Below, in pieces: positions 2,409 to 63,354 of a DNA stretch of 64,000 nt. The notes under the pieces were generated by a model. The model had not been told where the DNA came from and searched no databases. It was given only the letters and a program-made list of their open reading frames with translations. The DNA comes from Patescibacteria group bacterium. GTDB lineage: Bacteria; Patescibacteriota; Patescibacteriia; Patescibacteriales; UBA12465. The DNA lies in assembly GCA_023229115.1 (NCBI GenBank), contig JALNZW010000001.1:134861-198860 (forward strand), in the 5' to 3' direction. The position numbers and the translations under genes were made by a program. Within the stretch, counting starts at the first letter, position 1. Every line of letters starts with the position of its first letter.

Positions 2409-2422
2409 TTTTTAGATAGTAT

Positions 2423-2447
2423 AAGGGCCCTTAGGGGTCCTTTTTTT
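2423..2447 (+). terminator. Rho-independent terminator
   Basis: GGGCCC (2425-2430) pairs with GGGTCC (2435-2440) with one G-T pair and loop TTAG, followed by TTTTTTT. Confidence 0.65.
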
Positions 2448-2517
2448 GTATTAAAAAAATTTTGATTTCATTTTAAATTATGCTATTATATAGACATATT
2501 TATTCCTTTAATTAAGT

Positions 2518-19460: not shown

Positions 19461-19512
19461 TAAAAAATTATAATTAAAATAACCACTTGATTAAAAAGTG
19501 GAAATAAAATTT

Positions 19513-20526: not shown

Positions 20527-20527
20527 T

Positions 20528-38347: not shown

Positions 38348-38401
38348 TTTATTTCTTAATTTAAGTTTAATTAATGTTGTTTTTTTGTTTTGTCTAAAAA
38401 A

Positions 38402-44864: not shown

Positions 44865-45557
44865 ATGTTAGAAAAAATTTTTGGCTCAAAAGCCAGGGTA
44901 AAAATCTTAAAAGCTTTTTTAATGAGGCCTGATGAAAAATTTTATATTAGGCAGTTAGCCCGAGATTTAAAACTTCAGGTAAATTCAGTTAGAAGAGAAT
45001 TAATCAATTTAGATGATTTTGGCCTTTTATATTCAGATGATAACACGAAAAGCGCTTCTTTGTCTAGTATTGATAAGTCAAATTTAGACAAGAGTGATGA
45101 TGGGGCTGTAGACGAAGATTTAAAAAATGAAGCGTCACAGAAGAAAGAAATTAAAACAAGAAATATTAGAGAAAAAAAATATTATCAATTAAATAAAAAT
45201 TTTATTCTTTTTTCTGAAATTAAGTCTTTGATTGTAAAATCTCAAATATTGTCTGGCGAAAGTTTTATTAAAAAATTAAAACTAATCTGTGATCCCAAGT
45301 TTATTCTTTTAGGGGGGATGTTTTTGAATAATGATAATGCTCCAACTGATGTTCTGATTGTGGCTGACGTGGAAAAAGAAAAATTAATGAAAATCATCCA
45401 AGATTTAGAATTTGAATTAAATAAGGAGGTTAATTTTACAGCTATGGATGAAAAAGAATTTAGATATCGACAAGAAGTGGCTGACGTTTTTTTGCATGGC
45501 GTTTTAAATTCTAAAAAAATAGTTTTACTAGATAAAATTTTGGATGTTAAAAAATAA
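44865..45557 (+). CDS. Winged-helix (ArsR/MarR-like) transcriptional regulator with C-terminal nucleotidyltransferase-like domain
   Basis: FGSKARVKILKAFLMRPDEKFYIRQLARDLKLQVNSVRRELINLDDFGLL is a typical wHTH; 230 aa. Confidence 0.65.
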   Translation: MLEKIFGSKARVKILKAFLMRPDEKFYIRQLARDLKLQVNSVRRELINLDDFGLLYSDDNTKSASLSSIDKSNLDKSDDGAVDEDLKNEASQKKEIKTRNIREKKYYQLNKNFILFSEIKSLIVKSQILSGESFIKKLKLICDPKFILLGGMFLNNDNAPTDVLIVADVEKEKLMKIIQDLEFELNKEVNFTAMDEKEFRYRQEVADVFLHGVLNSKKIVLLDKILDVKK

Positions 45558-45569
45558 AATTATAAATAA

Positions 45570-47540: not shown

Positions 47541-47542
47541 AA

Positions 47543-48925
47543 ATGACTAATTTTTATAATAAAAAATATTATTGGTTTTTATTGTTAATTCCTGTTTTTT
47601 TGTTTTTGTTATCTTTAACTGAAATTAATTATTTAGTTTCAAGTTTGGCCTTAGTTTCCTTATTTTTTTTATTTATTTTATTTTTAAAAATAGAGATTGG
47701 TTTATATTTAATAGCCTTCTCTTTGCCTTTGATAGGGATAGCTTTTAAGATTAATTTTTTAGAATTGCCCTTGGTTGATTTACTAGCCTTATTTGTTTTG
47801 TTGGCTTTTATTTTACGCGAAATTTATCTTTATTTTTATGACAAGTCCAAAAGTAAATTAATTTATCCTTTCTTTTCTTATTTTATTGCTTTTTTTTCTA
47901 TTTGTTTACTCTCCTCACTGCTAAGCGAAAATATTATCAGCTCTCTTTGGTATTCTTTCCGTTGGATTTTGTTTTTTTATTTGGCTTTTATTCTGGTTCC
48001 AGTCAATGTTATTAAAGATGGTAGAATTTTAAAAAATATTATAATTTTATTTAGCTTATCTTCTTTAATTTTAGCTGGCTTCGGTGTGTTTTCTCTTTTT
48101 CTTCAGGATTGGCAAGATTCTTTTTTTAGAGTTCAGCCAATTTCTGTTTTTGCTTATCCTATTTTTGGTAATAATTATAATTTATTATCTGAAATACTTT
48201 TGTCCTCTGGGTTTTTAATTTTATCTTTAAAGCATTGGTTTAAAAATGAAAGATCTTCTAGATTTATAAACATTCTTTCTGTTTTTTTACTTTTAACAGC
48301 TTGGCTGACTTTTGGTCGCACAGCTTGGATAAGTATAACTCTTCAGATAATTGTTTATATCTCTATTTATTTTTTAGTGATTAAAAAGAAAAAAATTGAC
48401 TTTAAATCTGTGATATTAGTTTTACTTTCTTTTCTGGTGATTGCTTCTCCCTTTATTTTTAAAATGTTTTCCTTGCAAGAAGCTAATATTAGCTCTACAC
48501 AAAATAGATTGCTTTTGACTGACATTGCTTTTAAAGCTTTTGAGAACAAGCCATTACTGGGTTATGGAACCGGTAATTTTGTTAATTTGGTGGCTAATAA
48601 TATTAGGTTTGTCTCTAAATATGGAGATCCACTTGATTCTCATGGTGTTTGGCAGAAATTATTGGCTGAGAATGGAATTTTGGGGCTTATTTTATTTGCT
48701 TTATTTTCTTTTGTGATATTTAGAAAAATTTATTTAGGTGTTTTAAAAAATAGCAATGATTACAAGCTTTTATTACCTTTGTTTGTTGCTTCTTTTGGTG
48801 TTTATTTTTATCAATTTTTTAACACTTCTTATTACAAGGGTAGAGTTTGGTTGCCAATATCCTTAGCTTTAGTAGCCTTAATTTTGGTCGAAAAAAGAAA
48901 TAAGTTGAAACAAAATGAACAATAA
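47543..48925 (+). CDS. O-antigen ligase / Wzy-like polytopic membrane protein
   Basis: About 10-12 TM segments with a Wzy_C-like loop (FGRTAWISITLQ ... GYGTGNF); 460 aa. Confidence 0.65.
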   Translation: MTNFYNKKYYWFLLLIPVFLFLLSLTEINYLVSSLALVSLFFLFILFLKIEIGLYLIAFSLPLIGIAFKINFLELPLVDLLALFVLLAFILREIYLYFYDKSKSKLIYPFFSYFIAFFSICLLSSLLSENIISSLWYSFRWILFFYLAFILVPVNVIKDGRILKNIIILFSLSSLILAGFGVFSLFLQDWQDSFFRVQPISVFAYPIFGNNYNLLSEILLSSGFLILSLKHWFKNERSSRFINILSVFLLLTAWLTFGRTAWISITLQIIVYISIYFLVIKKKKIDFKSVILVLLSFLVIASPFIFKMFSLQEANISSTQNRLLLTDIAFKAFENKPLLGYGTGNFVNLVANNIRFVSKYGDPLDSHGVWQKLLAENGILGLILFALFSFVIFRKIYLGVLKNSNDYKLLLPLFVASFGVYFYQFFNTSYYKGRVWLPISLALVALILVEKRNKLKQNEQ

Positions 48926-50006
48926 AAAAATTAAAATTTTATATATCATTCCTTCTTTGGCTTCTGGTGGGGCTGAGAAATTTATCCTGGATTTAGTTAA
49001 TAACTTAAATCACGATATTTTTGAAATTAAAGTATTAGCTTTTAATGGTGGTGGTTTTTTTGAAGAAGAATTTATTAAAAGAAATATAAATTTAAAAATA
49101 TTAAAAAAGAAATTTAAATTGGATCTTTTTAATTTTTATCAAATTTGTAAAGAAATAAAATTTTTTTCGCCAGATATAGTTCACACTCAATTGGGTGGAG
49201 ATATTTATGGAAAGATAGCTGCTAAATTAATGGGGGTAAAAAAAATAGTTTCAACCGAGCAAAATGTTTTAGATAATGATAATTTTATTGTTAGATTTTT
49301 TAAAAAAATAACTGCTAACTTTTCTGACAAAATTATAGTTATTTCTAATTCGGTTAAAAAAGATGTTGTTAATAGATACAAGATTGATGAAAATAAAACT
49401 ATTTTAATACCAAATGGAGTTGACTGTTCTTTATTTGACGCTTCTCAACAAATAAAAAAAGGCAATTCGTTAGTATTTGGCTCTATTGGCAGGTTAAATG
49501 AGCAAAAAAATTTTTCTTTACTAATAAAAGCTTTGGCTCATTTTAAAGATAAGGACTTTTTGTTCTTAATAGTTGGTGAAGGTGAATTAAAAGAAGAACT
49601 GGAAAATCAAATATCAACCCTTTCTTTATCTAATAAAATTAAATTACTTGGAACAAAAAAAGATGTATTTTCTTTTTTGAGCTCTTTGGATTTTTTTGTC
49701 CTACCTTCTAAATGGGAAGGTTTGGGTATTGTTTTACTGGAAGCTGGTTTAGCGAAATTGCCAGTTTTAGCCTCGGCCACTGGTGGTATTTTAGATATTA
49801 TTATTGATAATAAAACTGGCATTTTGTTTAAAAACAATGATTTAAGTGATTTAATTCTTAAATTAAAGTATTTTTTTGATGATCAAAACAGAGAAAATTT
49901 AAGGTTTATGTCTAATAATTTATATAATTTGGTTAAAAAAGAGTTTGATATTAGAGTTGTTAGTCAAAAGTATACTACTTTTTATTTAAGTCTTTTAAAT
50001 GAATAA
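48915..50006 (+). CDS. Family-4 glycosyltransferase
   Basis: SGGAEKF N-terminus and PSKWEGLGIVLLEA E-x7-E region. It overlaps the upstream gene by 11 nt. Confidence 0.8.
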   Translation: MNNKKIKILYIIPSLASGGAEKFILDLVNNLNHDIFEIKVLAFNGGGFFEEEFIKRNINLKILKKKFKLDLFNFYQICKEIKFFSPDIVHTQLGGDIYGKIAAKLMGVKKIVSTEQNVLDNDNFIVRFFKKITANFSDKIIVISNSVKKDVVNRYKIDENKTILIPNGVDCSLFDASQQIKKGNSLVFGSIGRLNEQKNFSLLIKALAHFKDKDFLFLIVGEGELKEELENQISTLSLSNKIKLLGTKKDVFSFLSSLDFFVLPSKWEGLGIVLLEAGLAKLPVLASATGGILDIIIDNKTGILFKNNDLSDLILKLKYFFDDQNRENLRFMSNNLYNLVKKEFDIRVVSQKYTTFYLSLLNE

Positions 50007-51219
50007 TATGAAGATATTACAGGTTAATAAGTTTAATTATATTCGGGGTGGTGCAGAGAAATATTTTATTGATCTGTCCAAGGAGTTGGAAAGGGAGGGG
50101 CATGAGGTGGCTGTTTTTTCCATGAAGCATCCTAAGAATTTTAAATCTAAGTGGGAAAAATATTTTGTTTCTCGGATTAGTTTTAATGAGGCTAGTTTGA
50201 GGGATAAGTTGTTAGCTCCTTTTAGAATTCTATATAGTTTTGAAGCTAAAATAAAATTTAAAAAATTAATTAAAGATTTTAAGCCCGATATAATTCATAT
50301 TCACAATATTTATCATCAAATATCACCCTCGATTTTAAGTGTAGCTAAAAAATATAAAATTCCAGTAGTTATGCATGTTCATGATTATAAATTAATCTGT
50401 CCAAATTATCAGTTGTTCGTTGATAATCAAATTTGTTATAGGTGTCGAGGTGGTAAATATTATAAATGCTTAAAACATAAATGTTTTAAAAAATCTTATT
50501 TGAAAAGTTTTTTGGCCGCAATTGAAATGTATTTTCATCATAGAATATTAAATATTTATTTTAAAAATATAGATTTATTTATAGCCCCTAGTAATTTCAT
50601 GAAAGAAACTATTGTTAGTTTTAAGGTTCCAGAAGAAAAAATTAAAGTTATTTATAACTTTACCGTTATCAATCAAGTTGAAAATCAAGGTGGTGATTAT
50701 GGTCTTTATTTTGGTCGTTTATCAAGCGAGAAAGGTATCGATGTTTTGCTTAAAGCTCTTGCTTTATCTAAGAGTGATTTAAAAATTAAAATAGTTGGCT
50801 CTGGTCCCGAAGAAAAACAATTAAAAACTCTTTGCGATAAATTAAAGCTTAATAATAGGGTTGAATTTTTGGGTTATAAGTTGGGTGTTGAATTGGAGCT
50901 TATTATTAAAAATGCAAAAGTTATTTTTATGCCTTCAATTTGGGCGGAAAACATGCCTCTTTCACTTTTAGAATCTTTGTCTTTTTCTAGGGTGGTGATT
51001 GCTTCTAAGATAGGTGGAATGTCTGAGTTGATTGAAGATAATAAGAGTGGTTTTTTATTTCAAAATGGTGATTTTAAAGCCTTAGCTAGTAAGATAGACA
51101 GCTTAGAACATTGTGACTTAAGGCAGATTGGTCAAAGAGCTAGAGAGAAGGTTTTAGATTTAAATATTAATAAGCATTTAGAAGAAATTTTAAAAATTTA
51201 CAAACAGTATGTTAAATAA
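49999..51219 (+). CDS. Family-4 glycosyltransferase
   Basis: RGGAEKYF N-terminus, GRLSSEKG, and PSIWAENMPLSLLES. It overlaps the upstream gene by 8 nt. Confidence 0.8.
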   Translation: MNNMKILQVNKFNYIRGGAEKYFIDLSKELEREGHEVAVFSMKHPKNFKSKWEKYFVSRISFNEASLRDKLLAPFRILYSFEAKIKFKKLIKDFKPDIIHIHNIYHQISPSILSVAKKYKIPVVMHVHDYKLICPNYQLFVDNQICYRCRGGKYYKCLKHKCFKKSYLKSFLAAIEMYFHHRILNIYFKNIDLFIAPSNFMKETIVSFKVPEEKIKVIYNFTVINQVENQGGDYGLYFGRLSSEKGIDVLLKALALSKSDLKIKIVGSGPEEKQLKTLCDKLKLNNRVEFLGYKLGVELELIIKNAKVIFMPSIWAENMPLSLLESLSFSRVVIASKIGGMSELIEDNKSGFLFQNGDFKALASKIDSLEHCDLRQIGQRAREKVLDLNINKHLEEILKIYKQYVK

Positions 51220-52972
51220 AAAAAATATTTTAATTTTTAAATTTTTATTTATATTTAGCTTTGTTTTTTTTAACTCAGTTGAAGCTTCTGATATATTAAA
51301 TAAAGCTAATAAACTTTCAGCTAAATCACCTAAATTAGCCAATATTTTTCTTTCCTGGGATTTGAACGATGAAGATGTTTTAAATTTATCAAAATGGGAT
51401 TTAATAATTTTGGACATGGAACATCAGTTTAATAATCCCGACAAAATTAAAAAAATTAGAGAACTTAATCCCGATATTATTATTTTAGCCTATATTAGCT
51501 CTCAAGAGATTAGAAATGATGTTTATCTATATGATTATTTGCATTTAAGAAAAGAAATTCTGGAATCGATACCCGATAGTTGGTATTTGAAATTTGATAA
51601 TAAAAAAATAAGTTTTTGGCCAGAGACGTGGATGCTTAATTCTAGTAATTTAGGAGCGACTGTTGACGATAAAAGATGGAATGATTTTTTGCCAGAATTT
51701 GTAAGCTCTAGAATAATAGCTTCTGGTGTTTGGGATGGGGTTTTTTTTGACAATTTTTTTGACTCTATTAATTGGCTGAATGAGGGAAATATTGATTTAA
51801 ATAATGATGGTTTTAAGGATTCTTCTATTTCTGTAAATTCTGCTTGGCAGGAGGGAAATATAAAAATCTTAAAAAAAACCAGAGAATTGATTGGCTATGA
51901 TTATATAGTTTTAATAAACAGCTCTTCCTTTGCTCCTTATCAGAAATATGTTAATGGTCGAGTATTTGAAGACTTTCCGATCTCTTTCGAGGGTGATGGT
52001 TCATGGCAGGCTAATATCAATTCTTATCAATCAATTTATAATTTAAATACAAGTCCCAAGTTTTATATTTTTAATTTAACTAATAATAGTTTTTCTGATT
52101 ATGAAAAAATGCGTTATGGACTGAGCACTTCTTTGTTTTTTAATGATGTTTATTTAAGTTTTGATGATAGTATAGAAAACCATGGCCAAACTTGGGTATA
52201 TGAAGAATATAATTTTGATCTTTCTTCATTTAATAAAAACGCTTATCAAATTGGAAAAACAAATATTTGGCGCAAAGATTTTCGCTATTTTTCATCTTTA
52301 GTGAATATTGGCTCACAGGAGGAATTGTTCGAATTAACAAAAGATGAAAAACAAATTTATGATTGGTATCCAGAAAGAAATATAAAAATCAAACCTTTTT
52401 CATCAATAATAATAGAGCCTATTTTAAAACTTGATGGAACTTGGTTAAATAAAACGCGATATCAAGCTTTTAATTATTTAGGAAGGATAACTCATTCTAA
52501 TTATGTTATTAATAATAATGATTTTACAGAAAAGGCTATCATTAATTATCAAGAGGGAAGACAAGAGTTATTGTCGGCAGATTTAAGTGAATTAAGTAAA
52601 TTTAGAGAGAATAAAATTGATTCTAACAATAATGGTTTTTTAGAAAGAGTTGAAGGTTCGGTTACTGGTAATAAGTCTTTGGTAAAAATTTTTAATCAAG
52701 AAAATAAATTAGTTGGAATATTTAGAGCTTTTCCTGATCAATTTAAATGTGGGGCTAAGGTTTCTGTTGGCGACATCGATGGTGATGGTCAAGCAGAAAT
52801 AGTTACACTCCCAGATTGGGGTGGCCCACATGTTCGTATTTTTGATTTTTTTGGCAATCTAAAATATGAATTTTTCGCTGGAGATAAAAAAAATAGATCT
52901 TTCTATGATTTAAATTTGAGAGATATTGATTTTGATGGTCAAAAAAAAGAAATATTAATAGCAACATATTAA
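51209..52972 (+). CDS. Secreted glycoside-hydrolase-like TIM-barrel protein (GHL/GH114-like, tentative) with C-terminal FG-GAP repeats
   Basis: Signal peptide FIFSFVFFNSVEA. LSKWDLIILDMEH...NPDIIILAYIS and WDGVFFDNF resemble putative glycosyl-hydrolase-like families. The C-terminus VSVGDIDGDGQAEIVTLPDWGGPHVRIFD is an FG-GAP repeat. Confidence 0.45.
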   Translation: MLNKKNILIFKFLFIFSFVFFNSVEASDILNKANKLSAKSPKLANIFLSWDLNDEDVLNLSKWDLIILDMEHQFNNPDKIKKIRELNPDIIILAYISSQEIRNDVYLYDYLHLRKEILESIPDSWYLKFDNKKISFWPETWMLNSSNLGATVDDKRWNDFLPEFVSSRIIASGVWDGVFFDNFFDSINWLNEGNIDLNNDGFKDSSISVNSAWQEGNIKILKKTRELIGYDYIVLINSSSFAPYQKYVNGRVFEDFPISFEGDGSWQANINSYQSIYNLNTSPKFYIFNLTNNSFSDYEKMRYGLSTSLFFNDVYLSFDDSIENHGQTWVYEEYNFDLSSFNKNAYQIGKTNIWRKDFRYFSSLVNIGSQEELFELTKDEKQIYDWYPERNIKIKPFSSIIIEPILKLDGTWLNKTRYQAFNYLGRITHSNYVINNNDFTEKAIINYQEGRQELLSADLSELSKFRENKIDSNNNGFLERVEGSVTGNKSLVKIFNQENKLVGIFRAFPDQFKCGAKVSVGDIDGDGQAEIVTLPDWGGPHVRIFDFFGNLKYEFFAGDKKNRSFYDLNLRDIDFDGQKKEILIATY

Positions 52973-53028
52973 AATAACTTAGTCAAATTTATGATAAAAA
53001 TAGCTTATTTTAAAGCCTTTTTTAACTA

Positions 53029-53057
53029 TTGACATTTTTTTTAATATGTGATATACT
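53029..53057 (+). promoter_or_regulatory. Promoter (TTGACA-17-TATACT)
   Basis: TTGACA at 53029-53034, a 17-nt spacer, and TATACT at 53052-53057. Confidence 0.5.
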
Positions 53058-53115
53058 TATCAGTTAAGTTTGATTTTTTATTCAAAATAAATTTTAAAAA
53101 TTTAAATAAAAAAAT

Positions 53116-54486
53116 ATGAAAAATTTTAAAAAAATAGCCTTATTTCTAGTTTTGTTGGGAGGTGTTGTTTATTTAACCTCAATTCCAGCCAAAACCAAGG
53201 TTAAATCTTATTATTCTGGTGATGCTATTAATTATGAACAAGACTTAATTGTAGCCTCAACTGATAGTGAATATTTGGAGATTTTTAGATTAGAAGATGA
53301 TGGTCTAAAAAGAAAAATGTATTGGCGTCCTTTTGATTCTCGATTCAATAAAGATGATAGTTTTTATGGAGTTAAATTAAATATTGAAAGTGGACGTTTG
53401 TATGCTTATGTCATTTCTGGCTTTACTATTTACAAGTATGACATTTCTAATCTGAATAGTTATGAATTAGTTAAAGAAGTGAAAAATACTTATTGGGAAT
53501 GGTATAATCGAATTGATAAATTCGGTGATAATATTGTAACTATTAGTGCTAAAGGGGTTAAGGTTTGGAGTAGTAATTTAGAGGTTATAGATTCTTATGT
53601 TCTTGAAAATGACACTCCATACAATATTTCTAGTGGTGGTCATCCAAGTTTAATTTTTAATTTAGTTGAAAAAAATAATGAAATAGAGATATATGACAAG
53701 GGAGAGAGAAAAATAGCTGATAGATTGCAATTAAATTTTTATGGCGATAAAAATAATCGTGGAATATATTATGATTCTTATGATAATCATATTTATTTTG
53801 CTGATGATTTGTCGGTTAAAAAAGTTGGCCTAAACGGATCTTTAAAAGCAACCTTTGAGCACTTAGGTTATCCAGGCTACGATGTTCACTCTTCTGGTAA
53901 TGAGTATTTATACTTTTCTAATGGTTTAGGGGTGGTTAAAATTAGAAAATCAGATATGAGTGTTGTTACTTCCTTGAGAACAGGTGGTGTTGTAGCTGAA
54001 GAAGGTTGGGCTATGGGTTTAAAAGCTGTGGCTACTTATGATGGTGATAGAATTACTGTTTTTAATAATTCTAGTATTTTAATTTTAGATTCAAATTTAG
54101 ATGTTTTGGGTTATTTTAAAGCTGGTCAAGATGATAAAGTTTATCCAAAGGAAAATTTGTATTTAAATTTAAGTTCTCCAGTCGTTGACAGTGGAACTCA
54201 ATTTGAAATAAGTGGTGGCGGTTATTTACCAAATGAAAAATTAGTAATTGAATTTTATAATCAAAAAATAGAAGTTTCAGCTGATGCCGATGGTCGTTTT
54301 AATAAAATTTTAAACGGACCAAGCTTGCAGGAAAGTTCTTCTAGAAATAGAGTAACAACTCAAAGTGTTAGAAATGGCTTTGATGTTAATAATATTTCAG
54401 AAAAAACAGATGTTAAAGTTAGTGGTAAGGATTCTAAGTTAACATATAGTATTAGTTTAGAAGTTCAAGAAACAGTTTTAAAATAA
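53116..54486 (+). CDS. Secreted/anchored beta-rich protein (propeller-like), unknown function
   Basis: N-terminal hydrophobic segment IALFLVLLGGVVYL and repetitive beta-strand-like blocks; 456 aa. Confidence 0.45.
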   Translation: MKNFKKIALFLVLLGGVVYLTSIPAKTKVKSYYSGDAINYEQDLIVASTDSEYLEIFRLEDDGLKRKMYWRPFDSRFNKDDSFYGVKLNIESGRLYAYVISGFTIYKYDISNLNSYELVKEVKNTYWEWYNRIDKFGDNIVTISAKGVKVWSSNLEVIDSYVLENDTPYNISSGGHPSLIFNLVEKNNEIEIYDKGERKIADRLQLNFYGDKNNRGIYYDSYDNHIYFADDLSVKKVGLNGSLKATFEHLGYPGYDVHSSGNEYLYFSNGLGVVKIRKSDMSVVTSLRTGGVVAEEGWAMGLKAVATYDGDRITVFNNSSILILDSNLDVLGYFKAGQDDKVYPKENLYLNLSSPVVDSGTQFEISGGGYLPNEKLVIEFYNQKIEVSADADGRFNKILNGPSLQESSSRNRVTTQSVRNGFDVNNISEKTDVKVSGKDSKLTYSISLEVQETVLK

Positions 54487-54504
54487 TAAAATAAAAACAA
54501 AGAT

Positions 54505-55308
54505 ATGGATTTAAGTAGTTTATTAAAACAAAAAAGACAAACCTTGCTTTCTATTTTTTTAATTTTTTTAGTTATTGGATCTGCTTTTGTTTTATTGCAA
54601 GAATTTAAGTTTGGAACAAAATCAAAAATATTAGTTATTCAAGAAGGCTATGGTCGAGTTGATCCCTATGCTGTTTCTAGGTCAGTTGAATATTTATCTG
54701 ATTTATTTTCTCGAGTTATATATTCTAATTCTTTTTTTAGTCTTGTGGTTAGCTCTGATTTTGATATTGAGGAAGGTTATTTTGGTGAAGATGCTACTAA
54801 GCAAATGAAGAAATGGAAGAAAACTATTAGCGCTAAGGCTGTTGAAAATTCTGGCATAATTAATATTAATATTTACCATCCAGACGCTAGTCAAGCCAAG
54901 CAGATTGCTTTAGCTGTTAATCATATTTTAATAACTCAAAACCAAAATTATCAAGGTTTAGGTGATTCTGTTAAAATTAGTGTTCTAGATCAGCCAGTTG
55001 TCTCTAAATATCCAGTTAAACCAGGTTTATTTTTTAATTTATTATTTATTTTTGGTTTGAGTTTGTTGTTCGGTTTAATCTATATTTATGTTTTTCCTGA
55101 AGAAAGGTATGATTTAAATTTCTTTGTTTCTAAAAACAAAAATAGGAGAAACCTTGAAAATAGAAATAATAGTAAAAGGGAAAATGTTTCAGCTTTAAGC
55201 AAACAGAATATAGCTATAGATGAAAATAGAGATAAGATGGAAAAAAACATGGAAATTGATGAAGGAGAAGATGATGATGATTCTGGTAGTATTGACAATG
55301 TTTTTTAA
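54505..55308 (+). CDS. Wzz-like polysaccharide chain-length determinant (short PCP)
   Basis: Two-TM topology (N-terminal LLSIFLIFLVIGSAFVLL and C-proximal LFFNLLFIFGLSLLFGLIYIYVF) bracketing an extracytoplasmic domain. The tail is acidic. Confidence 0.55.
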   Translation: MDLSSLLKQKRQTLLSIFLIFLVIGSAFVLLQEFKFGTKSKILVIQEGYGRVDPYAVSRSVEYLSDLFSRVIYSNSFFSLVVSSDFDIEEGYFGEDATKQMKKWKKTISAKAVENSGIININIYHPDASQAKQIALAVNHILITQNQNYQGLGDSVKISVLDQPVVSKYPVKPGLFFNLLFIFGLSLLFGLIYIYVFPEERYDLNFFVSKNKNRRNLENRNNSKRENVSALSKQNIAIDENRDKMEKNMEIDEGEDDDDSGSIDNVF

Positions 55309-55312
55309 GGTA

Positions 55313-55341
55313 TTGACAATATTATTAAATTGTTATATAAT
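55313..55341 (+). promoter_or_regulatory. Perfect consensus sigma-70 promoter (TTGACA-17-TATAAT) of the foreign cassette
   Basis: TTGACA at 55313-55318, a 17-nt spacer, and TATAAT at 55336-55341. Confidence 0.65.
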
Positions 55342-55369
55342 ATAAGGTTCTTTGAAAAATATTCTCTTA

Positions 55370-55422
55370 AAGTTAAACAATTAAAAGTTATTGAATTTCG
55401 ATGATTTTTAATTGTTTAACTT
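55370..55422 (+). promoter_or_regulatory. 17-bp perfect inverted repeat (19-nt spacer) in the cassette 5' leader
   Basis: AAGTTAAACAATTAAAA (55370-55386) is the exact reverse complement of TTTTAATTGTTTAACTT (55406-55422). Confidence 0.7.
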
Positions 55423-55438
55423 AAAACACAGGAGAATC

Positions 55439-56335
55439 ATGAAAAAACTGACTAAAGTCTTAGCATCGGCGCTGTTATTAGCGCTTATTCCATTCGCTCT
55501 TTCAGCGCAATCTACTCGTTTTAATCTGAGTTATAGTTACTACAACTCATTTAACTCAGAGATTAATGTCATAAATGGCGTGGACACGATTTCTATGTCC
55601 AAAAGCGGCAAGGGTCACTTAAATAGACTCTATGCCAATTTATTTTTTGAAGACAATTTTGTCCCCGGTGTTTTTTTCGGAATTTCTGCTGAAGTTCAGC
55701 AGAAAAATATTGGAAAAATAACAAACGATTGGGTAAGCGGGGACTACGATCACCGTATCCTCTATGGATATGATTATGCCTTAGGTGCTGTTGTAAAATG
55801 GGATGAGATTCCAATCAATGTTGAAACCGAGGCTAATTTAGGTGTTTCGTTGCTTTATCAGAGCCATGAAATAAACTGGTTTTCTCGGCAAAACAACAAC
55901 CAAGCCGTTTTACTTGATTACAAGCGATTTGGCGTTGGAGTAAATTTTGGCATGATTATGTCTCGACCAAGCTACGAAAGCAGGTGGTTACCAAAAGGAG
56001 ATTTTGCTTTTAAATTTGCTTATTTCCCAGAGAAGGTAATGGAAGGAAATCACCTAGCTTATGCTGGTGAAATAAATCTTAACCTTGTAAAAATATTGCA
56101 AGGTGATAGGTTTTATCTTTCACCAACAGTAGGTTTTTCCGTCGATGAAGTACAGCAAGTTTCGTTAGGTTTCTCTCCGTTTATTTCAGGAGGATTAGCA
56201 TTGTCTCTCAGCGAATATCGAGCTGATTTTATCAAAGTTTATTATCAGAAAAGAGTCTATCAGGAAATTGTACCGCAGTACACTCTTGATGGAATATTTT
56301 TTTCTGTCAACATAGGATGTCTATTTAATAGATAA
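55439..56335 (+). CDS. Signal-peptide protein with outer-membrane beta-barrel-like sequence pattern; compositionally foreign
   Basis: The AGGAG SD at 55430-55434 sits 4 nt before the ATG. Signal peptide MKKLTKVLASALLLALIPFALSAQ. It has alternating hydrophobic/polar strands and an aromatic-rich C-terminus (GIFFSVNIGCLFNR). The first 60 nt contain 24 G+C, against 14 for the gene at 53116. I prefer ATG 55439 over TTG 55412. Confidence 0.8.
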   Translation: MKKLTKVLASALLLALIPFALSAQSTRFNLSYSYYNSFNSEINVINGVDTISMSKSGKGHLNRLYANLFFEDNFVPGVFFGISAEVQQKNIGKITNDWVSGDYDHRILYGYDYALGAVVKWDEIPINVETEANLGVSLLYQSHEINWFSRQNNNQAVLLDYKRFGVGVNFGMIMSRPSYESRWLPKGDFAFKFAYFPEKVMEGNHLAYAGEINLNLVKILQGDRFYLSPTVGFSVDEVQQVSLGFSPFISGGLALSLSEYRADFIKVYYQKRVYQEIVPQYTLDGIFFSVNIGCLFNR

Positions 56336-56830: not shown

Positions 56831-56859
56831 TTGTCAATATTCAATAATTCTATTATAAT
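56831..56859 (+). promoter_or_regulatory. Promoter (TTGTCA-17-TATAAT) for the ferredoxin/ATPase operon
   Basis: TTGTCA at 56831-56836, a 17-nt spacer, and TATAAT at 56854-56859. Confidence 0.55.
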
Positions 56860-56930: not shown

Positions 56931-57107
56931 ATGTCAATCAAAGTTGATCAAAGCAAGTGTGTTGGTTGTGGGATGTGTGTTAATATGTGTCCTAAGGTTT
57001 TTAAAATGAATTCAGCTGGAAAATCAGAAGTTATTAGTCAGCAAGATGTTGATTGTGCTAGAAATGCAGCTAACAGTTGTCCAGTTGAGGCTATTAAAGC
57101 TGAATAA
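56931..57107 (+). CDS. Small single-cluster ferredoxin
   Basis: CVGCGMCVNMCP ... C ... SCPVEAI pattern in a 58-aa protein. I prefer ATG 56931 over TTG 56910. Confidence 0.8.
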   Translation: MSIKVDQSKCVGCGMCVNMCPKVFKMNSAGKSEVISQQDVDCARNAANSCPVEAIKAE

Positions 57108-57111
57108 TTCT

Positions 57112-57612
57112 ATGGCTGAAGATTTAATCAAGAAAATAGAACGAGAAGTAAATAGGGGCGACAAAGAATCTTTTGATTCCCAAGAAAAAAGAAGTGAAGA
57201 TCAAGAGTCTTTTGATATTGGTTTTGAACAAAATGAAAACCTAGCAGAAAGATCAATCGAAGATAAGGAGGAGTTTACAAAACCAGGGGAAGGTTTTTCT
57301 TCGGGATCAGCTCCGGCGACTGTTGTAAGTAGTGAAAAAAATGAAAGAGAAGTTAAAATAGAAGAAATATTATCAGTTGGTCTGGATGATATTTTTTTAA
57401 ATTTATCACCCCAGAAACAAAAAGAATTTAAAATTGAAGGAGAAAAAGCTGTCTCTAAAATTAACGTTTTACTTGATAAAGCTAAAATTAATGTAGAAAA
57501 AGTTATTAATATTATAAAAAAATGGTTATCAATAATTCCTAAGGTTAATAAGTTCTTTTTGGAGCAAGAAGCTAAGATAAAAGCTGATCAAATAATAAAA
57601 TTGAAAAAATAA
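57112..57612 (+). CDS. Acidic/coiled-coil hypothetical protein preceding the ATPase
   Basis: It begins MAEDLIKKIEREV. The E/D/S/K-rich N-half is likely disordered and the C-half is amphipathic. I prefer ATG 57112, because the track start 57046 would overlap the ferredoxin by 62 nt. Confidence 0.6.
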   Translation: MAEDLIKKIEREVNRGDKESFDSQEKRSEDQESFDIGFEQNENLAERSIEDKEEFTKPGEGFSSGSAPATVVSSEKNEREVKIEEILSVGLDDIFLNLSPQKQKEFKIEGEKAVSKINVLLDKAKINVEKVINIIKKWLSIIPKVNKFFLEQEAKIKADQIIKLKK

Positions 57613-57615
57613 TTT

Positions 57616-60135
57616 ATGAATAATATTCAAAGCATTGATTTGGAGACAATTGAATCTTCTGGTTTTTTTTCTTCAGACTATTTCTATTTAGCACTTTTTT
57701 TTATAAGTGTTTTTTTGCTTTTTTTATTAATTCGTTTTTTTGTTAGATATTATAGTGTTAGGGGTAAAAATTCTAATCAAGCTATTTTTTTAGTCAGACT
57801 TCCTAAGGAGAAGCCAAAGGATCAAGACAAGGGAGAAAGTTTACAACAATTGCAAGAAGAAATAGCTAAGGGTGAAACTGTTTTCGCTAGTATTGGTGGC
57901 TTAAGAGCTCAAAGAGGCTTGGCTGCCTGGTTTTTTGGTCGTACTGATAATTTTTCTTTTGAAATTATTTCTAATAAAAATAAAATATCTTTTTATATTA
58001 CAGCCCCCAAAGAAAAAGCCTTATATATAGAGCAACAAATTCACGCTCACTACCCAGAGGCTTCAGTGGAAGAAGTTGAAGATTACAATATTTTTAATCC
58101 TCAAGGATATATTCTAGCTGGTTATTTACAAGCTAAAAGAAGTTTTATTTTTCCTTTTTTAGATTATAGCGAGATGGATTCTGACCCTATGAATTCGTTG
58201 ATTAATGTTATGTCTAAGCTTGAATCGGATGAAAGTATTGCTGTTCAATATGTAGTTAGAAGCGCCAAAAAAGGTTGGCACGCCAAAATTAAAGAATCGG
58301 TGCTTAAGGCTTATAAAAGCCAGGATGTTAGTGAGATATTTAGAATTAGTAGTAATTCTTTTTATAATGCTATTAATTTTTTTATTTATGATATTTTATT
58401 GGGCATGTTTGATATGGGTCGACCAGAAAAAAAAGAAAGTGATAATGGCAATAAAAAAGAGTTGACGGAAAAGGAAAGAGAAATGCTTAAAAAAATGGAA
58501 GAAAAGAATTCTAAGGCTGGCTTGGATGTAAATTTGAGAGTAGTTGTTAGCGCTAAAACAAAAGAAAAAACTCAAACGTATTTTGAAAATATTTCTAATG
58601 CTTTTAGTGAATATAATTATTATGAGTATGGTAATGCTTTTAAAAAAGTGGCTAAAGGTAATCAAGAAGATATAATCAATGATTTTATTTATAGACATTT
58701 TATTGATAGTCAAAGCTTCTTGTTGAACACCGAGGAACTAGTGTCTATGTATCATTTTCCTTTATCTCACACAGAAACACCCAATATTGATTGGTTGACA
58801 TCTAAAACAGCAGCAGCTCCTAGTAACTTACCCAAAGAAGGTGTTCTTTTAGGGTTTAATCTGTTTAGAGGTATTAAAACCGATGTCAGAATTAAAAAAA
58901 TTGACCGTCGTCGTCATATGTATATTATTGGTAAATCAGGAACTGGTAAATCTGTTTTGCTTAATAATTTGGCTATTCAGGATATACAAAATGGTGATGG
59001 TGTTTGTGTTATGGACCCTAATGGTGATTTGATTGAAGATATTTTAAATAGGATTCCGCCTGAAAGAGCAGAAGATGTTATAGTTTTTTCTCCCTCAGAC
59101 ACTGAAAGACCTCTTGGTTTGAACTTATTAGAGTATGATGAAAGATACCCAGAACAGAAAACTTTTGTTATCAATGAAATGATTGGTATCTTTGATAAAT
59201 TATATGATTTAAAAGCAACTGGTGGTCCAATGTTTGAGCAATACATGAGAAATGCTTTACTTTTAATTATGGATAGTCCAGAAACTGGCTCAACCTTAAT
59301 GGAAATTTCAAAAGTTTTGGCTGATGAAGATTTTAGAAGAATGAAACTTAGAATGTGCAAAAATCAAACAGTAGTTGATTTTTGGCAGAAAGAAGCTGAA
59401 AAAGCCGGAGGTGAGGCGGCATTAGCTAATATGGTGCCTTATATAACCTCTAAATTGACCCCCTTTGTCTCCAATGACATGATGATGCCAATTATAGGCC
59501 AACAAAAAAGCGCTTTTAATTTTAGAGATTTAATGGATAGTCGTAAGATATTAATGGTTGATCTTCCTAAAGGTGCTATTGGAGAAACTAATGCTTATTT
59601 ATTAGGTATGATTATTGTTGGCAAGATATTGATGGCAGCTCTTTCTAGAACTGATATGCCAGCCGAGGACAGAAAAGACTTTTATTTATATATTGATGAG
59701 TTTCAAAACTTTACAACCAATTCTATTTGTCAAATATTGTCTGAAGCTAGAAAATACGCCTTATGCCTTAATATAGCTCATCAGTATATCGGTCAGCTTA
59801 GTAAAAATCAAGATTCTCAAATTAAGGATGCTGTTTTTGGTAACGTTGGAACTATGGTTAGTTTTAAGGTGGGGTCAGAGGATGCTGACTTTTTAGTTAA
59901 AGAGTTTGGACCAGTTTTTAACGAATATGATTTGGTTAATATTGGTCGAGGTGGTTTTGCTAAGCTATTAGTCGATGGTCAAGGGACTAGGCCATTTTCT
60001 TTGCAAACTATTTGGCCTTTAATGGGTGATTTTAGACAAGGAATGTCGCAAAATGTTAGACAGCTTAGTCGTTATAAATACGGACAAGATAGAAATATAA
60101 TTTTAAGAGACATTGCTAATCGTCGAATTGATTAA
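57616..60135 (+). CDS. Membrane-anchored FtsK/HerA-superfamily ATPase, TraD/VirD4 (type IV coupling protein)-like, with a distinctive N-terminal module
   Basis: TM segment YFYLALFFISVFLLFLLIRFFV. Walker A is YIIGKSGTGKSVLL and Walker B is FYLYIDEFQNF. ARKYALCLNIAHQYIGQL is typical of TraD/TrwB-type proteins. The N-terminal 400 aa are homologous to the 2518-4032 protein. Confidence 0.8.
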   Translation: MNNIQSIDLETIESSGFFSSDYFYLALFFISVFLLFLLIRFFVRYYSVRGKNSNQAIFLVRLPKEKPKDQDKGESLQQLQEEIAKGETVFASIGGLRAQRGLAAWFFGRTDNFSFEIISNKNKISFYITAPKEKALYIEQQIHAHYPEASVEEVEDYNIFNPQGYILAGYLQAKRSFIFPFLDYSEMDSDPMNSLINVMSKLESDESIAVQYVVRSAKKGWHAKIKESVLKAYKSQDVSEIFRISSNSFYNAINFFIYDILLGMFDMGRPEKKESDNGNKKELTEKEREMLKKMEEKNSKAGLDVNLRVVVSAKTKEKTQTYFENISNAFSEYNYYEYGNAFKKVAKGNQEDIINDFIYRHFIDSQSFLLNTEELVSMYHFPLSHTETPNIDWLTSKTAAAPSNLPKEGVLLGFNLFRGIKTDVRIKKIDRRRHMYIIGKSGTGKSVLLNNLAIQDIQNGDGVCVMDPNGDLIEDILNRIPPERAEDVIVFSPSDTERPLGLNLLEYDERYPEQKTFVINEMIGIFDKLYDLKATGGPMFEQYMRNALLLIMDSPETGSTLMEISKVLADEDFRRMKLRMCKNQTVVDFWQKEAEKAGGEAALANMVPYITSKLTPFVSNDMMMPIIGQQKSAFNFRDLMDSRKILMVDLPKGAIGETNAYLLGMIIVGKILMAALSRTDMPAEDRKDFYLYIDEFQNFTTNSICQILSEARKYALCLNIAHQYIGQLSKNQDSQIKDAVFGNVGTMVSFKVGSEDADFLVKEFGPVFNEYDLVNIGRGGFAKLLVDGQGTRPFSLQTIWPLMGDFRQGMSQNVRQLSRYKYGQDRNIILRDIANRRID

Positions 60136-60137
60136 TT

Positions 60138-60959
60138 ATGAGCATTTTTTTTCAAATAAAAGCATTGATATTGGGCATGGTCCAGGGCTTTACTGAGTTT
60201 TTACCAATATCTTCAACCGCCCATCTTTTAATATTTGCTAAAATTCTAAAATTAGAGCTTAGTGATTTTATCAAAAGCTTTATTATTATAATTCAATTTG
60301 CTTCTATTTTGGCTGTTGTTTTTTTGTATTGGAAAAAAATAATTGATAATTTTTTTACCTACTTTAAAAAATTAGTTATAGCTTTTATTCCGACAGCTAT
60401 CTTGGGCTTAATTTTTTATAAAATAGTAAAAAATTTCTTACAAGAAAGTTTTTTAATTATCTCTTTATCCCTATTTTTAGGCGGAGTATTAATGATAATT
60501 CTAGAAAATTATTATTATCAAAAAAAGCAGAAGACGTCTGTTGAAAATAAAAAAGATTCAATGCTTGACCCGATAAAGGAAATAAGTTATAAAAAATGTT
60601 TTTATATTGGCTTATTTCAAGCTATAGCCATGATCCCAGGAGTTTCTAGATCAGCAGCCACTATTTTTGGTGGACTTTTTCTAGGTATTAGTCGTAAGGC
60701 TATTGTTGAATTTTCTTTTTTATTAGCGATTCCAACCATGGCGGCTGCCACTGGTTTAGATTTAATAAAAACAGGTTTAAGTTTTCAAAAAAATGAAGTT
60801 GTATTTTTAATTATTGGTTTTTTAACTTCTTTTATTGTTGCCATGTTTTCTATTAAATTTTTATTAAAATTTATTAAAAAAAGTGATTTTAAACCTTTTG
60901 CTTGGTACAGGATAATTATTGGTTTATTGACTTTTTTATTCTTTTTGTTTAAGCTATAG
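60138..60959 (+). CDS. uppP: Undecaprenyl-diphosphate phosphatase
   Basis: GMVQGFTEFLPISSTAHL and PGVSRSAATI motifs; 8 TM. It starts 2 nt after the ATPase stop. Confidence 0.92.
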   Translation: MSIFFQIKALILGMVQGFTEFLPISSTAHLLIFAKILKLELSDFIKSFIIIIQFASILAVVFLYWKKIIDNFFTYFKKLVIAFIPTAILGLIFYKIVKNFLQESFLIISLSLFLGGVLMIILENYYYQKKQKTSVENKKDSMLDPIKEISYKKCFYIGLFQAIAMIPGVSRSAATIFGGLFLGISRKAIVEFSFLLAIPTMAAATGLDLIKTGLSFQKNEVVFLIIGFLTSFIVAMFSIKFLLKFIKKSDFKPFAWYRIIIGLLTFLFFLFKL

Positions 60960-60990: not shown

Positions 60991-61701
60991 ATGAAGAAAA
61001 TCAATTTCTCTGACTGGACTTTTATTTTTGATTTTGATGGAACATTGGCCAATACAACGATGGTCGGTGTTGATAGAATTAATTATATCTGTAAAAAAAT
61101 AAAACTAGAAGAAGGTAAAATTCCAGACAAAATAACGCTTAGAGAGCTTTGGGGCTTGCCTTATAAAGATTTAATAAATATTATAGCCAAAAGATTTGAT
61201 TGGCTAGATAGTGATTGTGAAAATTTTTGGAAAGAAGACTTTCTTTATATCAATCCTAAACCAAAAAAAATTGCCTCAATTGATACGGCCTTGAATTATG
61301 TTTATGATATTGGAGTTAATTTGGCTATTATTTCTAGCAGAGAAAAAGAATCTATTATTGAATTGGCCCCAATTTGTGGTATTAATTTAAATTTTTTTGA
61401 GTATGTTCAAGGCAGTAATTGTCATGAACATATTAAGCCAGATCCTAAGGTTTTTGATTTAATTGAAAATTATTTAACGGAAAAGGGAAGGGATATTGGT
61501 AAAGTTGTTTATATTGGTGACACGGTTAACGCTGATTATGAGGCGGCTAAAAAAAGGGGCTTGAAGTTTGTAGCTATAGCTTCTTCTTTTATGTCTACTC
61601 CGGCTGATTTTGTAGAGTCTGGTCTCGATAAAAAAATGATTTTTAATAATCCGGTCGATTTATGTATTAATACTGACAAAATAATAAAATTTTATTATTA
61701 A
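60991..61701 (+). CDS. HAD-superfamily hydrolase
   Basis: FIFDFDGTLANT (DxDGT) motif I and GDTVNADYEAAKKRG motif IV. Confidence 0.8.
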   Translation: MKKINFSDWTFIFDFDGTLANTTMVGVDRINYICKKIKLEEGKIPDKITLRELWGLPYKDLINIIAKRFDWLDSDCENFWKEDFLYINPKPKKIASIDTALNYVYDIGVNLAIISSREKESIIELAPICGINLNFFEYVQGSNCHEHIKPDPKVFDLIENYLTEKGRDIGKVVYIGDTVNADYEAAKKRGLKFVAIASSFMSTPADFVESGLDKKMIFNNPVDLCINTDKIIKFYY

Positions 61702-62468: not shown

Positions 62469-62921
62469 TTATTTATTAATTTTATTTTCGTAAAGTGAAT
62501 TTAAAATATTTATTGCTTCTATTATTTTTTCTAGTCTTTTAATTGTTTCTTGTGAATAATCAAAACCTCTTTTTCCGTTTATTGAGCTTTGAAGTACAAA
62601 ATCAATATTTTCAATTAAACAGTTTTTTATTTTGAATAAATTATCATCATGTTTTAAATCATTTTTTTTATTATTAAAATGATTTAATTCTTGATTTTCT
62701 GGATGCTCTTTAATTCTTTCTCTTAATAGGGCAATAATATCTTGTGATTTGTTTTTAATGAAACTTATACTAGAATTTAAATTTTCTCTTCTCTCTTTTT
62801 TATTTATTATAGAGAGTAGAAAATTGACTTCTTTCCTTAATTCAATAATCGTTTTTTGAAACAAAACCCTTTCTTTAAAATCTTTGTCGAAGTCACTTCT
62901 AGCTATTTTTTCATTATTCAT
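62469..62921 (-). CDS. Orphan helical protein inserted between rplK and rplA
   Basis: 150-aa ORF from ATG 62921 (MNNEKIARSDF...), 10 nt after the rplK stop and ending 37 nt before the rplA ATG. I recognise no family. The track start 62972 would overlap rplK. Confidence 0.55.
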   Translation of the reverse strand: MNNEKIARSDFDKDFKERVLFQKTIIELRKEVNFLLSIINKKERRENLNSSISFIKNKSQDIIALLRERIKEHPENQELNHFNNKKNDLKHDDNLFKIKNCLIENIDFVLQSSINGKRGFDYSQETIKRLEKIIEAINILNSLYENKINK

Positions 62922-62931
62922 AAAAATATCA

Positions 62932-63354
62932 CTATTTGATTTCAACCCCCATTTGTCTGGCTGTACCAGCAATAATTTTCATAGCAGCTTCTATGTCGTC
63001 AGTATTTAAATCTGACATTTTTAACTTAGCTATTTCTGCTAATTGTTCTTTATTAATAGAAGCTACCTTTTGACTTAATGGTTTGCCTGATCCTTTTTGA
63101 ATTTTGGCAATTTTTTTAATTAATTCAGATGCTGGAGGTGATTTCATTATAAAATCAAAAGTTCTGTCTTCATAAACACTGATTTCAACTGGGGTTATTT
63201 CTCCCATTCTATCTCTACTAGCATCATTAAATTTAGAACAAAAATCTTGGATATTTAAACCGTGCTGTCCTAAAGCTGGACCAACCGGAGGAGCAGGATT
63301 AGCTTGACCAGCTGGAATCTGTAATTTTATTTTGGTTAATAATTTTTTAGCCAT
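62932..63354 (-). CDS. rplK: 50S ribosomal protein L11
   Basis: [35 protein letters not shown] is the invariant L11 N-terminal domain. Confidence 0.96.

Follow-up and report, generated by a model that had tools for sequence, protein, structure and literature searches.

A membrane-anchored VirB4/VirD4-class ATPase with a DUF8128 domain and its small partner protein on a Patescibacteria chromosome

The 64-kb window analyzed in this work (the whole stretch of DNA under study, ~29% G+C, from contig JALNZW010000001.1 of a Patescibacteria group bacterium) encodes an ATPase of 839 amino acids (aa), preceded by the gene for a 166-aa protein, referred to below as the partner. Together they form a pair, a conserved partner and a membrane-anchored ATPase of the VirB4/VirD4 class, which is chromosomal, is located among housekeeping genes and is hardly ever linked to a type IV secretion system (T4SS). 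In the reading that we favor, and to which we give about an even chance of being right, the pair would be a translocation motor of the VirB4/VirD4 class, vertically inherited and anchored in the membrane, whose substrate is probably DNA and whose adaptor-like partner is specific to the clade.

Patescibacteria, which account for much of bacterial diversity, combine tiny genomes with dependence on a host. The ATPase is kept at 60-80% identity across genera, and a large ATPase conserved to this degree in tiny genomes must do something important. The family has already been catalogued, in the form of an NCBI name, a Pfam DUF and a count in a survey from 2025. In that survey 5,713 homologs of type IV coupling proteins (T4CP, VirD4-type) were counted in 2,918 of 3,035 Patescibacteria genomes, 148 of them near virB4 (Quinonero-Coronel et al. 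2025, PMC12102498). The ATPase of the window is very probably one of these ‘orphan’ T4CP homologs, which in the part of the survey drawn on here are likewise VirD4-profile matches, near-universal in the phylum and not located beside virB4; the same part does not describe the DUF8128/VirB4-like N-terminal domain, the coupled partner, the phage homologs or the recurrent neighbors. What is new here is the fusion of a predicted VirB4-like N-terminal domain to a VirD4-like motor, the coupled small partner and the Bacillus phage homologs located beside DNA-processing genes. In this way a vague annotation becomes a set of hypotheses testable in the genetically tractable Saccharibacteria.

Architecture and homologs of the ATPase

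Translation of the ATPase gene revealed the Walker A motif GKSGTGKS at 58930-58953 (residues 439-446), the segment YLYIDEFQNF at 59683-59712, in which the Walker B motif itself occupies 59683-59700 (residues 690-695), and an RKY..C...AHQ block, reading RKYALCLNIAHQ, at 59749-59784. All three agree exactly with the motifs quoted in an earlier note made on this DNA from its sequence, which had described the protein as a T4CP-like ATPase, and the catalytic residues are invariant in 42 homologs, down to 33% identity. The T4CP likeness was borne out, as Pfam domains of the T4CP type scored above cut-off (PF10412 TrwB_AAD_bind 35.8 bits, cut-off 20.5; TraG-D_C 24.7 bits, cut-off 22) and the motor is TrwB/VirD4-like by sequence and by structure. 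Its best sequence match in PDB was TrwB, DotL was also found, the TraD/VirD4 models were the nearest ones, and GxxGxGKS together with the following DPNGD aligned with residues 51-94 of TrwB. The curated NCBIfam models for TraD, VirD4 and VirB4 all remained far under cut-off, the best being SXT_TraD (46.1 bits vs 366), with the CD1115 VirD4-like model at 26.8 bits (cut-off 250) and TIGR00929 (VirB4) at 17.5 bits (cut-off 643). No Pfam match of the ATPase was obtained for the VirB4 families PF03135, PF12846 and PF19044 (CagE_TrbE_VirB, AAA_10 and P-loop_TraG) or, at E up to 0.01, for the FtsK_SpoIIIE motor PF01580; the likeness to FtsK/SpoIIIE is, as far as these profiles tell, at the superfamily level only.

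The AlphaFold2 model of the full-length protein, built on 42 diverse homologs, reached pLDDT 86 and pTM 0.75 (the domain limits are given in Table 1). In this model the insertion between Walker A and Walker B (residues ~513-641) is all-helical. Foldseek comparison of the full-length model with PDB gave as the top match TrwK, the VirB4 protein of plasmid R388 (~900 columns, E 1.8e-14), followed by TrwB (target template modelling (TM) score 0.6-0.7), Cag-beta, HerA and DotL.

The N-terminal module had been called novel in the earlier note. It is already in Pfam as PF26449 (DUF8128), which the precomputed annotation assigns to this very protein and to each of its top 120 homologs; our local copy of Pfam gave no PF26449 match for the ATPase or for a 504-aa paralog encoded elsewhere in the window, and no mention of the name DUF8128 was found in the literature searched. 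When the domain was modelled separately (residues 52-428, pLDDT 85, pTM 0.81), the top 14 Foldseek matches in PDB were all TrwK/VirB4 (E 3.9e-6 to 2e-3, probability 0.98-1.0, query TM score ~0.4), with nothing significant apart from TrwK/VirB4. These models suggest that the fold of DUF8128 is closest to the N-terminal domain of VirB4/TrwK. A profile of the DUF8128 alignment had no match among PDB sequences, and hhalign against the N-terminal domain of the CD1110-family VirB4 (an alignment of the A. prevotii plasmid VirB4 and its homologs) returned a probability of 0.6%. The DUF8128 hidden Markov model (HMM) likewise had no match on A. prevotii VirB4 or on gp155 of phage G.

Canonical T4CPs have two transmembrane helices directly before the motor. 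With the T4CPs (VirD4/TrwB/TraD/DotL; PF10412, PF02534) the ATPase shares the TrwB-type P-loop domain, intact Walker A and Walker B motifs with a helical insertion between them, the membrane anchor and the structural match to TrwB at the TM score given above, and by analogy with them it is probably a hexameric translocation motor. It differs from them in the single transmembrane helix instead of two, in the 370-aa DUF8128 domain placed between anchor and motor, and in a gene that is chromosomal, vertically inherited, highly conserved and without relaxase or T4SS linkage. A helical insert between the two Walker motifs is found in VirB4 as well, and this feature does not separate VirB4 from T4CP. 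The likeness to VirB4/TrwK/TraC lies in the order of an N-terminal alpha/beta domain and a RecA-like ATPase, in TrwK being the best full-length structural match, and in a small membrane element, fused or encoded upstream, that recalls VirB3-VirB4. The differences from VirB4 are the missing VirB4 Pfam match and N-terminal profile similarity, the TM score of only ~0.4 and a gene position not beside virB3, virB6 or virB8.

Homologs were also found in phages. The family phrog_5156 matched residues 109-835 of the ATPase with E 4e-77, and tblastn matched it in 69 phage records, of which 65 belong to Bacillus phages; identity was ~21-23%, and coverage reached 87% of the protein (73-87% for gp156 of phage G and its relatives). 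The DUF8128 HMM confirmed the domain in gp156 of phage G, gp51 of 031MP004 and a Thrax2 protein (E 1e-20 to 1e-39), and those Bacillus phage proteins were the best structural matches of the N-terminal domain in BFVD (E 1.5e-19). Gp156 of Bacillus phage G and its relatives (PHROG 5156; 031MP004, Thrax2, Sophrita, Goe26) are true homologs with the same architecture of DUF8128 plus ATPase; they differ in being phage-encoded and in their small upstream genes, which are hydrophobic, not acidic. In phage G (89194-93336) gp156 comes after gp155, a genuine VirB4-like ATPase (P-loop_TraG and AAA_10), in Thrax2 the homolog is located between an M23 peptidase with ParM and a replication-relaxation protein with a tyrosine recombinase, and in 031MP004 it is found inside the early DNA-metabolism region. 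The phage loci with a DUF8128-ATPase are L084 (phage G), L166 and L167.

The partner protein and the gene neighborhood

Gene neighborhoods were compared in 166 loci overall, among them 80 taken from GTDB species genomes and 80 from metagenomes, the latter representing more distant clades. The homolog search with the ATPase gave 4069 matches, the top 120 of which are at least 63% identical, all with PF26449 and nearly all with T4CP domains in addition; the search with the N-terminal domain gave 1978 clusters at 50% identity. An identical protein is on record from a Patescibacteria metagenome-assembled genome, and the nearest named relatives belong to Candidatus Falkowbacteria.

In 58 of the ~72 close loci that have an upstream gene, a member of the partner family is encoded directly 5′ of the ATPase, at a median gap of 4 nucleotides (nt). 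In the distant set, 49 of 70 loci have a small gene on the same strand just before the ATPase gene (defined as ≤230 aa, gap <120 nt), and 30 of these 49 are acidic. The upstream genes of the distant clades fall into several families that hhalign did not connect. Most of these partners have an acidic low-complexity N-terminus and a short conserved helical C-terminal part, and some long forms of the ATPase bear an acidic disordered C-terminal tail instead of a small upstream gene. Since hhalign found the upstream partners of different clades to be mostly unrelated, we gave up the idea of a universal partner family. Only the pair of partner and ATPase, encoded together in most of the close loci, forms a conserved unit, and this unit is widespread in Patescibacteria.

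The earlier note had presented the 166-aa protein as an acidic coiled-coil protein. Acidity holds for the N-terminal half, which is variable (pI 4.4) and probably disordered, and fails for the C-terminal ~90 residues, which are basic (pI 9.6), helical and strongly conserved, with W138, L139, P143, N146, F149, E151, Q152, E153 and K155 invariant in the alignment. The invariant Gly and Pro speak against one long coiled coil. All 211 homologs of the partner are hypothetical proteins, none of them with a Pfam domain, and no match was found in Pfam, NCBIfam, PHROG, PADLOC or PDB; the profile of the partner, too, had no match in Pfam and PDB. An analogy is offered by the accessory proteins of T4CPs (CagZ with Cag-beta, TraM with TraD, IcmS/W with DotL), small proteins encoded with a coupling ATPase that they bind or regulate; the partner differs from them in having no sequence or profile similarity and in that the partner families vary between clades.

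The flanks in the 166 loci consist of ribosomal, tRNA-synthetase and replication genes, and in the distant set the housekeeping genes next to the ATPase include those for class II ribonucleotide reductase (RNR), cob(I)alamin adenosyltransferase, a XerC/D-like recombinase, FtsB, AspRS, DnaE, PheT and TGT. At least one of dnaX, xer, dnaE, gyrA/B and RNR lies within 6 kb of the ATPase in 99 of the 166 loci: dnaX in 71, xer in 17, gyrB in 6 (two distant clades included) and dnaE in 3. The order partner-ATPase-gyrB(-gyrA) was seen in two further distant clades. Among the 80 genome loci the commonest downstream genes are dnaX (immediately adjacent in 28 loci and separated by one gene in 15, with a median ATPase-to-dnaX gap of 12 nt), serS with the gene for a GHL15 protein, or the gene for a conserved 226-aa protein.

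The statements of the earlier note that no other T4SS or conjugation components are nearby and that the ATPase is not part of a recognizable conjugative system both held. Among the open reading frames (ORFs) of at least 110 aa in the window there are no VirB4, relaxase, VirB6 or pilin families, and neither the window nor the flanks of 165 of the 166 loci contain virB3, virB6 or virB8 neighbors. Of the loci compared, L116 is the only one with a VirB4-like gene within 6 kb; this gene takes up positions 1856-3448 on the same strand, 2.5 kb 5′ of the DUF8128-ATPase, a possible ancestral or secondary linkage.

Two further observations were made on these loci. A protein of ~205-226 aa is often encoded between the ATPase and dnaX (L030, L032, L041, L043 and others; 39 of 166 loci); it carries the motif EGVFDGENMIGPDGKQYSVPANYASKSKLVEGD...TASVTYFKG...WAAVENI and has no Pfam match, and tblastn found no copy of it in the window. 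Tandem duplicates of the full-length DUF8128-ATPase are present in L086, L087 and L088, and such duplicates may account for part of the ~2 T4CP homologs per genome reported in the literature.

The remaining two genes of the string in the window are those for a 58-aa ferredoxin and for UppP. The ferredoxin is of the single-cluster 4Fe-4S type (PF13370 Fer4_13, 58.2 bits over the entire protein) with the ligand set CxxCxxCxxxCP and a distal CP, its sequence reading CVGCGMCVNMCP ... C ... CP. UppP is a full-length BacA/UppP protein (PF02673 BacA 253 bits; TIGR00753 236.5 bits vs cut-off 217.5), whose several hydrophobic segments in the hydropathy scan fit a multi-pass membrane protein. The conservation of the four-gene string, which the earlier note had put forward as a candidate system defined in part by its link with a redox protein and with the phosphatase of a lipid carrier, was tested in the genome loci. 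The ferredoxin gene stands 5′ of the partner-ATPase pair in 24 of the 80, all from one subclade in which rpmA is also divergent upstream, and uppP adjoins the 3′ end of the ATPase in only three loci, namely L002, L013 and the contig of the window itself (L001). Lack of conservation, a finding by which the earlier note had said its reading would fall, applies to uppP and in large part to the ferredoxin. The uppP gene is a lineage-peculiar neighbor outside the conserved module, and the tight spacing is a general trait of these compact genomes, not special to this string. Because the neighborhood of uppP and fdx is not conserved and tight spacing is general, linkage to these genes defines nothing, and the supposed coupling of the ATPase to ferredoxin and UppP can be removed as a false lead.

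Positions 19498-23297 of the window encode GAPDH, then a NuoF-like flavoprotein (Complex1_51K and NADH_4Fe-4S) and the large subunit of an [FeFe]-hydrogenase with ferredoxin-like domains. These proteins are plausible redox partners of the 58-aa ferredoxin, more so than the ATPase.

The 504-aa paralog (Table 1), already pointed out in the earlier note, is real: BLASTP aligned it with residues 87-408 of the ATPase at 25% identity (E 3e-21), and it matched phrog_5156 with E 3.9e-11. Its gene is followed by those for a GT4 glycosyltransferase and a DUF4012 protein, and the same GT4-DUF4012 pair is located directly 5′ of the full-length ATPase in L038, L043 and L077 and nearby in L064 and L065. These two arrangements may reflect a link between DUF8128 and envelope glycans, or chance. 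No stand-alone DUF8128 gene was present within 6 kb of the ATPase in any of the loci compared, and cluster look-ups showed many DUF8128 matches of ~400-500 aa to be fragments of fused proteins. Envelope genes are also found in a surface-polysaccharide cluster at 44865-56335, with a second DUF4012 protein, a Wzy_C O-antigen ligase-like protein, two GT4 enzymes and a GHL15 protein. After the cluster come three proteins of 456, 267 and 307 aa for which Pfam gave no match; signal-like N-termini are present in two, and one looks like a beta-rich outer-surface protein.

Proposed role of the pair and its alternatives

In the favored reading the ATPase, encoded on the chromosome, would belong to the VirB4/VirD4 branch of the FtsK-HerA superfamily and be laid out as an N-terminal membrane helix, a cytoplasmic DUF8128 domain of ~370 aa and a motor of the TrwB/VirD4 type. 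To judge from FtsK-HerA proteins, TrwB and VirB4, it would assemble as a membrane-anchored hexameric ring and move a polymer with ATP. The partner, translationally coupled to the ATPase, would most likely be an adaptor or regulator that docks by its conserved C-terminal helices and exposes the acidic disordered arm. The substrate would most likely be DNA, handled independently of conjugation in chromosome handling, uptake or export, and the ferredoxin, uppP and HAD hydrolase genes may be regarded as co-transcribed bystanders in a compact genome. The gene neighborhoods and the phage contexts suggest DNA as the polymer and a task other than conjugation. We give this part roughly between a one-in-three and a one-in-two chance, because the neighborhoods are not independent, dnaX and gyrBA may only mark proximity to the origin and the window is without those neighbors.

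Several points weigh against the favored reading. The loci with DNA genes share phylogeny, gyrBA and dnaX may only mark an origin-proximal placement, and none of dnaX, gyrBA, dnaE and xer adjoins the ATPase in the window itself. T4SS clusters of Patescibacteria have been found origin-proximal as well, according to the part of the survey drawn on here (PMC12102498). The VirB4-like reading of DUF8128 comes from Foldseek only, at a query TM score of ~0.4 and with no profile signal, and the partners of different clades are not detectably homologous in their sequences, which leaves one conserved subunit across clades unsupported. A simple replacement of FtsK, a role that was set aside, is unlikely because FtsK has been reported in Saccharibacteria.

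A more far-reaching proposal, speculative and in our estimate improbable, is that within the VirB4/VirD4 clade the DUF8128-ATPases represent a deep lineage of their own, the third, combining an N-terminal domain of the VirB4 type with a motor of the VirD4 type. This lineage would be near-universal and vertical in Patescibacteria, shared only with some Bacillus phages, and would act as a membrane DNA pump free of a T4SS channel, serving chromosome handling, uptake or export in ultra-small cells, while the clade-specific partner would tune the motor and its acidic arm might mimic or compete with DNA. If true, such a lineage would bear on the divergence of VirB4 and VirD4.

The main alternative to the favored reading is that the ATPase is the coupling protein of a chromosomal Patescibacteria T4SS encoded elsewhere, recruiting effectors or DNA via the acidic partner and handing them to a VirB4/VirB6 channel in an epibiotic lifestyle. 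We consider it doubtful, with perhaps a quarter of the weight of belief. The T4CP-type motor seen by Pfam, PDB sequence and fold speaks for it, as do the known small partners of T4CPs, such as CagZ with Cag-beta (Foldseek match 8dol), and the VirB4-like gene upstream in L116; the linkage in L116 is, on the other hand, the only one in the 166 loci. The survey cuts both ways in the part considered here: T4CP genes often lie apart from virB4, the genomes with VirB4 (2,417 of 3,035) are fewer than the 2,918 with T4CP homologs, and the T4CP homolog of S. epibionticum is not essential, whereas its T4SS is; the authors state that exaptation of T4CP homologs cannot be ruled out (PMC12102498). The Se T4SS cluster has no recognizable coupling protein or relaxase (Wang et al. 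2023). The extra VirB4-like domain predicted for the ATPase and its single transmembrane helix depart from canonical T4CPs, and the Bacillus phages that carry homologs are without a full T4SS. A weaker alternative, which we regard as distinctly unlikely, has the ATPase assemble or energize an envelope structure (surface glycan, pilus or wall polymer), much as VirB4 does when pili are built; DUF8128 would then dock to envelope-biogenesis proteins. It draws on the VirB4-like fold of the N-terminal domain, on the GT4 and DUF4012 genes abutting the paralog or preceding the ATPase in the loci named above, and on uppP here and GHL15 in 25 loci as envelope genes. These links are few, though, and probably stand for two or three independent events in genomes where envelope genes are abundant, the uppP linkage is confined to three loci, and the motor sequence is nearer to the DNA-translocating T4CPs than to VirB4.

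Two other explanations appear very improbable. The notion that the ferredoxin, the acidic protein, the ATPase and UppP form a redox- and lipid-carrier-linked membrane translocation system rested on one promoter, spacers of 2-4 nt and a common strand; against it stand the restricted occurrence of uppP and ferredoxin next to the pair and the general tight spacing, and the flanks in other lineages are dnaX, serS, corA, dus, cysS, gyrB and others. Equally slim is the prospect that the ATPase was left behind by, or is carried on, a mobile element, prophage or defense island, to which the phrog_5156 match, the homologs in 69 phage records and a superfamily-level match to the defense protein mad8 could point. 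It is flanked by housekeeping genes, the window has neither integrase nor phage genes close to it, the GC content of the locus is the same as in the rest of the window, and the protein is highly conserved with stable synteny across genera, whereas the phage homologs are only ~21-23% identical. A reading as a defense system was also rejected, as the PADLOC matches to mad8 and HerA are at the superfamily level only.

Organization of the locus and other features of the window

The features of the two DUF8128 loci are listed in Table 1. The claim of one promoter in front of four closely packed genes agrees with the site at 11 of 12 consensus positions and with spacers of 4 nt between fdx and the partner gene (57107 to 57112), 3 nt between the partner and ATPase genes (57612 to 57616) and 2 nt between the ATPase gene and uppP (60135 to 60138). 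The ORFs and their order are as the earlier note had given them; the run does not stop at uppP. Because the HAD hydrolase gene follows 31 nt past uppP and no terminator-like site was found in this gap, the co-directional run may count five genes, with the hydrolase as the fifth co-transcribed one.

Table 1 Features of the ATPase and paralog loci (coordinates refer to the window)
Feature	Position	Strand	Remarks
Sigma-70-like promoter site TTGTCA-17-TATAAT	56831-56859	+	Consensus match at 11/12 positions; putative promoter
Divergent promoter-like site TTGACA-17-TATATT	56837-56809	-	Faces rpmA (L27)
fdx, 58-aa ferredoxin	56931-57107	+	ORF
166-aa partner protein	57112-57612	+	ORF
839-aa ATPase	57616-60135	+	ORF; DUF8128 domain and TrwB/VirD4-type P-loop motor
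ATPase, single N-terminal transmembrane helix (residues 17-48)	57664-57759	+	Hydropathy scan; helix 18-51 in AlphaFold2 model; only transmembrane segment
ATPase, DUF8128 domain (residues ~55-426)	57778-58893	+	Predicted alpha/beta fold; PF26449 precomputed annotation; model pLDDT 85
ATPase, RecA-like NTPase domain	58894-60132	+	Walker A, helical insertion (residues ~513-641), Walker B, RKY..AHQ block
uppP	60138-60959	+	ORF
HAD-family hydrolase	60991-61701	+	HAD_2 83.8 bits; 31 nt after uppP
Stand-alone DUF8128 paralog, 504 aa	2518-4032	+	One transmembrane helix (residues 19-51); charged C-terminal tail; without ATPase domain
GT4 glycosyltransferase	4033-5208		No spacer after paralog
DUF4012 protein	5215-8013		After GT4 gene

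Promoter-like sites with at least 11 of 12 matches number 11 in the window, compared with 4.3 +/- 2.3 in Markov-1 random sequences. The seven near-perfect sites of the plus strand (15706, 25334, 41468, 44791, 53029, 55313 and 56831) are each located just 5′ of a gene start, and because all seven directly precede gene starts the organism appears to use promoters of the TTGACA-17-TATAAT type. The source Patescibacterium thus seems to rely on textbook sigma-70 promoters, a trait that helps operon calling. The two closest relatives, L002 and L003, have retained the TTGTCA-17-TATAAT site, which is missing from more distant ones.

The window as a whole is rich in housekeeping genes according to the ORF annotation, and no tRNA or Rfam matches were found in it. 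The genes rplA and rplK are normally adjacent. Between rplA (L1) and rplK (L11) of the window there is a 167-aa ORF on the minus strand (62469-62972) that has no Pfam match and overlaps the end of rplK; it has been called as a 150-aa gene on the source contig. At 38390-39925 the window encodes a GH3-family protein of the acyl-acid amido synthetase type with all three GH3 domains, which looks unusual for a reduced Patescibacteria genome.

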